From Escherichia coli (lineage in GTDB: Bacteria; Pseudomonadota; Gammaproteobacteria; Enterobacterales; Enterobacteriaceae): 64,000 nt of DNA. Numbering within the stretch: the first letter of the stretch is position 1; each line of letters begins with the position of its first letter. Below are positions 18,001 to 21,000 of the stretch, in pieces. The stretch is taken from assembly GCF_045037415.1 (NCBI RefSeq), contig NZ_CP173438.1. One strand, given 5' to 3'. The position numbers were made by a program.

Positions 18001-21000
18001 ATGCCGATGTTATTAGCCGGATTCGCGCCACGCTCTATTCCGGCGGCAGTCAGATTCAGGGGGCGCAGGCATTAGAGGTGTTGCGTGGTCTGGTGCTCGC
18101 GCCAGTGATGCACGCGGTGCAGGCGGGGGTATCTGAACGGTTGCTGGCTTTGCTTAACGGCGGCGCGGTGGCGGAAGTGAAAAGCGCCGTCATTGCCAAT
18201 GCACAGTCGAAGGTATTGATTGTGGAGTTTCATCAGCCGATTGCCGCCAGAGTGCTGGAAGAGGCGCAGAAACTCGGTGCCTTGCCTTACCCGGTTGGTG
18301 CAGAGTCGAAATATGAAATCCCGCCGCTCTTTTATCGACTTTCCGGAACGTTTCGCCAGGCGAATCCGCAGTTAGAACATTGCGCGATTCGCATTAACCC
18401 AAATCGCGGCGGTGAAGAGACGATATTGCGGATCTTGCGTGAAAGTATTGCCAGCATTTAATCGTTGTAAACGATATTTTCGAAAAGAATGCAGAAACAA
18501 ATACGCCCTCGGATAACTCCGAGGGCGTCAGGCAATTAAACCGGCGTTAGCCGATTTCTGTCAGAGACTTACTGTGCAGTCGGACCGCAACCGCCAATGA
18601 TTTTAGAAATAGAAATTGCCGGGTGCAGCAGGTAGTCGTAAGAGCAGTTCTTATCACGGTTTTCAATATGACCAGTACATGCAGTTAACGTAGCCAGTAC
18701 TGCGCCTACCAGTGCAACTTTAATAAATTTGTTCATTTACATTCCCTATGTATTATATATTAATTAATATTCATTGATTATATGAATATAAGCAGACTGC
18801 TCATTAAGAACGATACAGGAATATTCAATTAGCGTCAGTGAGCGATTGGCTTAATTTTGTAAGTTGCTGTAACGGTGAATATAACCCATTAGCAGACAAT
18901 ATTTATTAAGGGGTTATATTTTTATCTGCTGAATATATAAAGAGAGTTGTAAACGAAAAAGGCCAGACTTCTCTGGCCCTGGTTAAATTAATGGTTAGAG
19001 AACCAGTTCAATTTATCGCGCAGGCCAACAACCCGACCAATAATAATTAGCGATGGACTGTTCATTTGCTGCGCCAGTTCGCCCAGCTGCGTGAGCGTAC
19101 CGTCAATCACGCGCTGCGTGACTGCCGTTCCGTTTTCGACAATTGCTACCGGCATTTCACCAGGCATACCGTATTCAATCAGCTTTTGCTGAATAGTTGC
19201 AGCCTGATTCAGCCCCATATAAAACACCAGCGTCTGTTTTTCTGCCGCCAGGTTTTCCCAGTCCAGCTCGCCACCGGTTTTTAAGTGTCCAGTAATTAAG
19301 CGTACGCTCTGGGCATAATCGCGATGCGTGAGCGGAATACCCGAATAGGCAGAGCAACCAGAGGCTGCGGTAATACCCGGAACCACCGAGAATGGAATAC
19401 CCGCGTTGCACAGTGTTTCCAGCTCTTCGCCACCACGGCCAAAAATAAACGGATCGCCGCCTTTCAGCCGCACCACGCGTTTGCCTTTTTGCGCTTCCCG
19501 CAGCAGGATCTGGTTAATCTCTTCCTGCGGTACGCAGTGGTATCCCGCGCGTTTGCCGACGAAAACGCGATCAGCATCGCGGCGTACCAGATTCATAATA
19601 TCGTCAGAAACCAGACGGTCGTAGACCACCACATCTGCCTGCTGAATTTGTTGCAGACCTTTCAGTGTCAGCAGCCCGGCATCGCCCGGACCTGCACCAA
19701 CCAGCACCACTTCACCGCGATGATCGAGCGGTTCATTGATTAACTGTTCGGTGGTTTCAGTAATGGCTTTCTGATCGTTGTTGGCCAGCGACTGCGCCAG
19801 GCGGTCATTAACGAACAATTTCTCCCAGAAACGGCGACGCTCACCCATCGTGGCGAACTGTTGTTTCACTCGCCCGCGTAATTGCCCGGCGTATTTCGCT
19901 ACCTGGCCCAGATGTAACGGCAGCAGTGATTCGAGTTTTTCGCGCAACAGGCGCGCCAGAACCGGAGAGGTGCCGCCAGAGGAAACCGCTACCATGAGCG
20001 GCGAGCGGTCAATAATCGACGGCATAATAAAGCTGGCGGCTTTCGGCGCATCGACCACGTTACAGAAGATGCGACGAGCTTCAGCGGCTTCGCTGACGCG
20101 CTGGTTAAGCGCGTCATCATCCGTCGCTGCAATCGCCAGCCAGCAGGTGTCGAGAAGGCTTTCATCAAATGGCCCTTCGACGAGGGTTAACATGCCTGCA
20201 TCTGCCCATGCGGTGAACTGTGGAATAAACGCTAATGCATTCACCGTTAAGCGAGCGCCTGCGTCTAACAGCAACCTTGCTTTGCGTTCCGCGACATCAC
20301 CACCGCCGACAATCAGACAGTCGCGATCGCGTAATTGGCAAAATATAGGCAAATGATCCACGTAAAAACCCCTTAATAATTAACCGGCAGCCGTTTCAGT
20401 TTGATTAAATTTGTCCGCAACCGGACGATTCGCTTTCGGCGTAGCATACCAATAACCCAATCCCATGAATACGGCACCCGATAAAGTATTACCCAGCGTC
20501 ACCCACAGCAGGTTATGACCAATACCCGCCAGCGTGTAGGCTTCGCTGTGGTTGCCGAACCAGGAGAGGGCGAACAGCGTCATGTTAGCGATGGAGTGCT
20601 CGTAGCCGGACGCGATAAATGCCAGCAAACACCACCAGATAGCGATAAATTTCGCCGCCCCTTCAGTGCGCAGCGCCATCCAGATTGCCAGGCAAACCAG
20701 CCAGTTACACAATGCACCTTTGAAGAACAGTACCATTGCCGGTGCAGTGGTTTTAGCCAGCGCGACGGAGTGAACGATGCTGGTATCGACCGGCAGCAGG
20801 CTACCGCCACCCCAGCTATAGAGCATGGCAACAAAGACGGAACCGACCAGGTTACCCAGCCAGGTTTGCGGCAGGATTGCCCACATTTGCCCGTGGCTGA
20901 TAGTGCCCGCTTTCACTCCAAAGGTGAGGAACATGGTGTGTCCGGTGAACAGTTCAGAACCGGCGATAATCACCAGCGTTAAGGCGATACCAAAGGTCGC

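Follow-up and report, generated by a model that had tools for sequence, protein, structure and literature searches.

The cysG-yhfL spacer of Escherichia coli as a probable H-NS-silenced promoter region, already documented in K-12

The spacer between cysG and yhfL of Escherichia coli K-12, the orthologue of the one analysed here, is itself an entry among the type-B spacers in the catalogue of "constitutive promoters" compiled from RpoD SELEX by Shimada et al. (2014; PMC3946193). In that work, genomic SELEX showed binding of the RpoD holoenzyme to the K-12 cysG>yhfL spacer, an H-NS site was flagged, and the promoter TTAACG-19-TATAAT was named; the evidence behind the catalogue is in vitro binding and not a mapped start. 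Both gspA<HNS>gspC and cysG>HNS>yhfL of K-12 are flagged in this way, with RpoD holoenzyme and H-NS genomic SELEX (PMC3946193). A SELEX peak of the RpoS holoenzyme was also located in the K-12 cysG-yhfL spacer (Shimada et al. 2017; PMC5493296). In this line, the fast-evolving H-NS-bound intergenic regions described by Higashi et al. (2016) include yhfL|cysG (row 635), which was bound by H-NS in ChIP of at least one of the strains K-12, SE11 and SE15, is marked as having a RegulonDB promoter, and shows an average pairwise distance of 0.058, when the medians are 0.016 for H-NS-bound and 0.0067 for unbound spacers. Two computational promoters of RegulonDB, yhfLp4 and yhfLp5, have served as test sequences.

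Expression studies in K-12 point in the same direction. RNA-seq of wild type versus Δhns gave a log fold change of 3.13 for yhfL (P = 3.4e-18; Forrest et al. 2022, PMC8894471), a gene tabulated there among hdeAB, bglG and csgD and raised about 8.7-fold in the Δhns strain. Moreover, yhfL was the most repressed gene upon induction of Nac (0.008-fold, that is, 125-fold), and a Nac ChIP-seq peak was assigned to it, which the authors class as genic (Aquino et al. 2017; PMC5217608). The transcription-start table of Kim 2012 holds no entry for yhfL; we found no evidence of Fis binding at the spacer, and the Myers 2013 tables for FNR and nucleoid proteins likewise lack yhfL. The spacer is an ordinary feature, already documented in the K-12 literature.

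The allele described here lies in a window of 64 kb (the whole stretch of DNA that was analysed, 64,000 nucleotides), where the spacer stretch belongs to the E. coli chromosome and matches strain SK1144 at 100% identity. The genes run along the minus strand in the order nirB-nirD-nirC-cysG, followed by a 251-bp spacer and yhfL (Table 1). An AT-rich island at 18737-18952 had been pointed out by eye in a first-pass annotation, and it is the E. coli cysG-yhfL intergenic spacer, these coordinates covering the spacer between the yhfL start codon and the cysG terminator hairpin. The quoted sequence was found at that position, its placement between the cysG terminator and the yhfL start agrees with a start codon at 18736 and a hairpin at 18980..18959, both on the minus strand, and the names cysG and yhfL, as well as the mention of the frl junction, were all correct. 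The YhfL protein matches Pfam PF13978 (E = 5e-38) and has no differences from WP_001031834.1 of K-12. YhfL is a DUF4223 lipoprotein. The gene also stands downstream of cysG in Citrobacter, Enterobacter, Leclercia, Lelliottia, Cedecea, Buttiauxella, Pseudocitrobacter and Hafnia; being a core E. coli gene whose position after cysG is kept across many Enterobacteriaceae, yhfL is not a recent foreign acquisition.

Table 1. Features of the cysG-yhfL spacer and its flanking genes, in window coordinates
Feature	Position	Strand	Remarks
yhfL	18569..18736	minus	gene served by the spacer; 55 aa, DUF4223 (YhfL family)
proximal conserved segment	18737..18836	minus	yhfL promoter, 5' leader and ribosome-binding site
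Shine-Dalgarno AGGGA	18743..18747	minus	6 nt upstream of the yhfL ATG
ARG-box-like core TGAATATTAATTAA	18760..18773	minus	inside the predicted leader
palindrome ATATTCAT-N7-ATGAATAT	18767..18789		encloses the -10 hexamer; possible operator, unproven
-10 hexamer TATAAT	18777..18782	minus	perfect consensus; 19-bp spacer to the -35
-35-like hexamer TTAATG	18802..18807	minus	promoter scan; K-12 reads TTAACG
distal AT-rich segment	18837..18958		poorly conserved; divergence at about the neutral rate
inverted repeat AATATAACCCATTA / TAAGGGGTTATATT	18878..18920		in the distal segment
promoter-like CAGACA-16-TATATT	18893..18920	plus (opposite strand)	consensus scan only
nirBDC-cysG intrinsic terminator	18949..18980	minus	hairpin 18980..18959, then TTTCGTTTAC
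cysG	18988..20361	minus	last gene in nirB-nirD-nirC-cysG

The base composition of the 216 bp between 18737 and 18952 sets them well apart from their surroundings, as had been claimed: their GC content is 28.7%, compared with 51.3% window-wide; they fall within the bottom 0.35% of all 216-bp windows of the 64 kb, and the GC content drops to 17% in the 40 bp adjoining yhfL. The density of TpA steps reaches 0.153, the maximum among the 216-bp stretches of the 64 kb (median 0.042), and the many TATA and ATAT motifs noticed by eye amount to 8 and 11, respectively. The AT-richness is of this TATA/ATAT kind and not one of phased A-tracts: the A/T tracts in the spacer are short and only five. In this regard, the curvature suggested as a check was not borne out, since the wedge model, with approximate parameters, gave an unremarkable intrinsic curvature, its end-to-end ratio of 0.939 ranking at the 24th percentile window-wide.

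When the entire 251-bp spacer is considered, its GC content is 31.5%, the fourth lowest among the 31 spacers of at least 50 bp in the window (mean 42.4%), after those of gspC|gspA (22.9%), pabA|argD (29.4%) and tuf|chiA (29.9%). The cysG-yhfL spacer is therefore not unique and belongs to the normal tail of intergenic composition. It is comparable in GC to tuf|chiA and to the H-NS-bound gspA|gspC spacer present in the same window, with which it also shares its position upstream of a poorly expressed gene. On the other hand, it differs from the H-NS-silenced islands of several kb in being a small, single-gene target.

Altogether, the cysG-yhfL spacer probably works as an H-NS-silenced promoter region, a reading that carries the K-12 results over to this allele by inference. 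The features that argue for it are the low GC content, the top TpA density, the terminator, the -10 and -35 hexamers, the Shine-Dalgarno site and a marked split in conservation between the proximal and distal parts; as to composition, the spacer has the high AT content and the abundance of TpA steps looked for in H-NS-silenced regions. The annotation had proposed a nucleoid-protein-bound promoter, which finds support in the H-NS SELEX flag, the ChIP data and the binding of RNA polymerase holoenzymes published for K-12 and other strains, and its description as tightly regulated fits the derepression in Δhns K-12 and the strong repression upon Nac induction with a ChIP peak nearby. That interpretation is supported as correct in substance, and it was already published for the K-12 orthologue. 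The binding and expression data come from K-12, SE11 or SE15, and the allele in the window departs from that of K-12 by a C>T change within the -35 hexamer and by 13% in the distal half.

According to this H-NS-silencing model, transcription of nirBDC-cysG would end at the terminator hairpin, to be followed by some 150 bp of TpA-rich DNA under little sequence constraint. Beyond it, within the conserved proximal part, a sigma-70/sigma-S promoter belonging to yhfL would start transcription anew, with the -10 at 18782..18777. H-NS would bind the TpA-rich DNA over and upstream of this promoter and probably spread across promoter and leader, which would occlude the promoter and keep yhfL low, and the loss of H-NS would raise its expression by about the factor seen in K-12. 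Nac may repress yhfL further in a nitrogen-dependent way. Part of the Δhns effect on yhfL could be indirect. The high-affinity H-NS motif TCGATAAATT is absent from the spacer, with no match at up to one mismatch and a best internal match of two mismatches located at the spacer edge; the nearest site with one mismatch, GCGATAAATT, is found at 19010-19019, within cysG. Nor is TCGATAAATT enriched window-wide (71 occurrences vs 60 ± 8 in shuffles).

A closer view of the spacer reveals three parts, namely the terminator hairpin, a distal portion of around 150 bp and a proximal portion of 100 bp. The terminator scan gave a stem of 9 pairs (5 of them G-C), a loop of 4 and a T-rich tail, TTTCGTTTAC, with the hairpin starting 8 nt past the cysG stop codon (18990..18988); it is kept in K-12 and takes a variant form in the divergent E. 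coli lineages E69 and SCPM, which were compared together with K-12 and E. albertii. In the proximal part, the promoter scan found TTAATG-19-TATAAT, which scores 9/12 for the sigma-70 hexamers at a spacing within the 15-19 bp range, although this length is non-optimal, and which agrees with the promoter named by Shimada et al. for the K-12 spacer. The -10 is identical to that of the K-12 entry and is conserved in the window, K-12 and E69, SCPM having CATAAT, whereas the C>T change leaves the -35 of the window with a 3/6 match to the consensus. The positions of the hexamers place the predicted start near 18770, and the AT-rich leader would then be about 34 nt long. The promoter-like element on the opposite strand also scores 9/12, and such elements are no commoner there than in shuffles.

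The whole spacer is 91% identical to its K-12 orthologue, a figure that conceals two very different halves. The proximal 100 bp are 97% identical to K-12 and 82% to E69, without any difference from K-12 in the last ~66 nt upstream of the yhfL ATG, and 5,386 of the 5,414 matching E. coli records (complete genomes) share 95% identity or more with the segment. On the contrary, the distal 151 bp are 87% identical to K-12 and 55% to E69, in the latter case with many indels, and in 3,854 of 5,349 matching E. coli records this segment is merely 80-90% identical. Its distal part occurs in E. coli in at least three allele classes: that of the window, the K-12 type (~72% of genomes) and the E69/SCPM type. 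Relative to K-12, the distal half accumulates 14 mismatches and 5 gap positions over 151 bp, when the four-fold degenerate sites of cysG diverge by 10.1% between the same two sequences, so that it evolves at about the neutral rate, whereas the proximal half, with 3% divergence, changes about three times more slowly than these sites. The high divergence reported by Higashi et al. (2016) was thus reproduced by our counts, with the difference that here it is concentrated in the distal half and about equals the cysG synonymous rate, which looks like relaxed constraint and not like acceleration.

These figures lend weight to the alternative that only the proximal ~100 bp are functional, the distal ~150 bp being near-neutral sequence, AT-rich through mutational bias, where H-NS would bind as a passive by-product of composition. 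We give this explanation a little short of an even chance. Besides the match between its divergence and that of the cysG four-fold sites, and the extensive indels against E69, the distal sequence has been replaced between lineages while its GC stays at 26-31%, its inverted repeats are neither conserved nor beyond chance, and the spacer of Enterobacter is simply shorter. Outside Escherichia, spacers range from 124 to 507 bp and from 26 to 47% GC and can be aligned only at the ribosome-binding site, the block ATAGGGAA-N-ATG being the sole upstream part largely conserved (A/C-A/G-GGA before the ATG) in Escherichia, Citrobacter, Buttiauxella and Cedecea. In Enterobacter, Leclercia and Lelliottia, they are short (134-153 bp) and have as much as 43-47% GC, which indicates that the expression of yhfL does not depend on extreme AT-richness. 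However, AT-richness is kept in every spacer of Escherichia, Citrobacter, Buttiauxella, Cedecea and Hafnia, and also upstream of unlinked yhfL homologues (24-31% GC), and this persistence across genera hints at a compositional constraint. Moreover, a neutral distal half largely overlaps with silencing by H-NS, of which it is a refinement more than an exclusion.

A rather unlikely possibility is that yhfL is controlled by a specific regulator and not by H-NS alone, be it Nac, ArgR or some further factor, acting through the palindrome around the -10 (18789..18767) or through the ARG-box-like site in the predicted leader (18773..18760). The strength of the Nac effect, greatest of all at yhfL and accompanied by an assigned ChIP-seq peak, speaks for Nac, but the peak is genic and not in the spacer according to its authors, and the effects of over-expression can be indirect. 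The palindrome itself is conserved across E. coli lineages, without any arm mismatch in the window, K-12 and E69, and with one in SCPM and two in E. albertii; however, 15% of shuffles contain such a repeat by chance, and the inverted repeats and palindromes of the spacer are in general within chance (15% and 7% of dinucleotide shuffles contain such repeats). As for ArgR, its operator consists of two 18-bp boxes with the core TGAATWWWWATTCA, 21 bp apart. The element TGAATATTAATTAA is the sole match to this core with one mismatch in the whole window, and it surpasses the matches, spaced by 21 bp and with two mismatches, that precede argD in the pabA|argD spacer; a half box accompanies it at the 21-bp phasing (18781-18794). 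Yet this second box has 4 mismatches, neither E69 nor SCPM nor E. albertii keeps the match of the first, and yhfL does not figure among the ArgR loci named in the text consulted. The ARG-box-like core, the best match in the window but lost in divergent Escherichia, is therefore no more than an unlikely candidate.

Silencing by H-NS of a conserved promoter core remains our preferred reading, and it leaves room for a bolder version, which we regard as more doubtful still: the turnover of the distal 150 bp would not be mere drift, its allele classes would set a lineage-specific silencing of yhfL by H-NS or Nac, and a specific regulator could be added through the two sites that overlie the -10 and the leader, namely the conserved palindrome and the ARG-box-like one. 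What the locus does illustrate is that the recognition by eye of an AT- and TpA-rich spacer can point correctly to a promoter bound by H-NS, in this case one already catalogued for K-12; its residual value is that of a compact, two-part example, in which a conserved promoter core adjoins a distal half changing at about the neutral rate.

Hardly credible is, finally, that the spacer hides a small RNA, a riboswitch-like leader, a small ORF or the remnant of a mobile element or integron attC site: its best Rfam score is 17 bits vs a cutoff of 70, no annotated feature underlies it in any sampled RefSeq record, the two spacer ORFs, of 23-24 codons and with TTG or GTG as start codons, fall within the distal part, which is not conserved, and were rejected on that account, and the attC clusters without integrase that IntegronFinder called at cysG/yhfL in 20 isolates concerned core genes, which according to the authors are also present in isolates without such calls. 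A scan of Rfam at a permissive E-value returned only chance-level matches (best 13-20 bits vs gathering thresholds of 35-93). The minus-strand RNA of the window allele does fold better than shuffles (z = -3.8), with the region after the terminator pairing with the yhfL ribosome-binding site, but this signal is allele-specific and vanishes in K-12 (z = -1.4), E69 (-1.0) and SCPM (-0.2), which rules out a conserved leader or sRNA. The low folding energy peculiar to the window allele is driven by the inverted repeat AATATAACCCATTA / TAAGGGGTTATATT, which is absent from E69 and SCPM and differs at two arm positions in K-12.

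The association of yhfL with AT-rich DNA is not limited to the neighbourhood of cysG. Homologues of yhfL located away from this gene, among them an additional Citrobacter youngae copy and others from Serratia, Rahnella and Mangrovibacter, are preceded at seven compared loci (L009, L027, L013, L015, L034, L037 and L040) by 200 bp of upstream DNA with only 24-31% GC, and therefore the family tends to follow AT-rich sequence whatever the locus. Two further homologues (loci L036 and L042) come from metagenome bins that bear the labels Bacillota and Rickettsiales; the short contigs on which they lie are most likely mis-binned enterobacterial DNA.

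In E. coli KFu022 (locus L003), the cysG-yhfL spacer is interrupted by an IS1A element (L003 2287-3120) at a point corresponding to ~18866 in the window. This genome has lost yhfL, yhfS and most of yhfT, and its match to the spacer is reduced to ~120 bp adjoining cysG. On the downstream side of yhfL, the strain studied here lacks frlABCDR, while K-12 carries frlA-frlR between yhfS and yhfL. The frl junction was placed at ~18493, since the matches of K-12-type genomes begin there (query position 32). A 2026 preprint described the yhfL/frlA spacer as a target of parallel adaptation in germ-free mice.

Features of the yhfL downstream side and other AT-rich spacers of the window
Feature	Coordinates	Length or composition	Remark
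yhfS 3' end to yhfL stop codon gap	18462-18568	107 bp	
yhfL terminator hairpin	18528..18503		still present in this strain
gspC|gspA spacer	62622-62800	22.9% GC	
tuf|chiA spacer	48045-48335	29.9% GC	

The cysG/yhfL region has also been picked up by IntegronFinder, which called clusters of attC sites lacking an integrase (CALIN) at this position in 20 clinical E. coli isolates. The genes comprised in these calls are core genes that are equally found in isolates without them, so hairpins of the region probably mimic attC sites.

The two other AT-rich spacers of the window are gspC|gspA and tuf|chiA, and in the RpoD holoenzyme genomic SELEX table (Shimada 2014) the one between gspA and gspC carries the same H-NS-bound flag as cysG>yhfL. 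As for intrinsic curvature, a crude wedge-model scan with approximate parameter values did not place the cysG-yhfL spacer among the strongest predicted bends of the window, the largest of which fell inside kefB (~38794) and the trpS|yhfZ spacer (~10925), with ratios of 0.674 and 0.745, respectively. Finally, the top match to the ARG-box core in the whole 64 kb lies in the predicted yhfL leader (18760-18773, one mismatch), and the pabA|argD spacer directly upstream of argD holds a pair of matches at 27943-27977 that are spaced by 21 bp and each deviate from the core at two positions.
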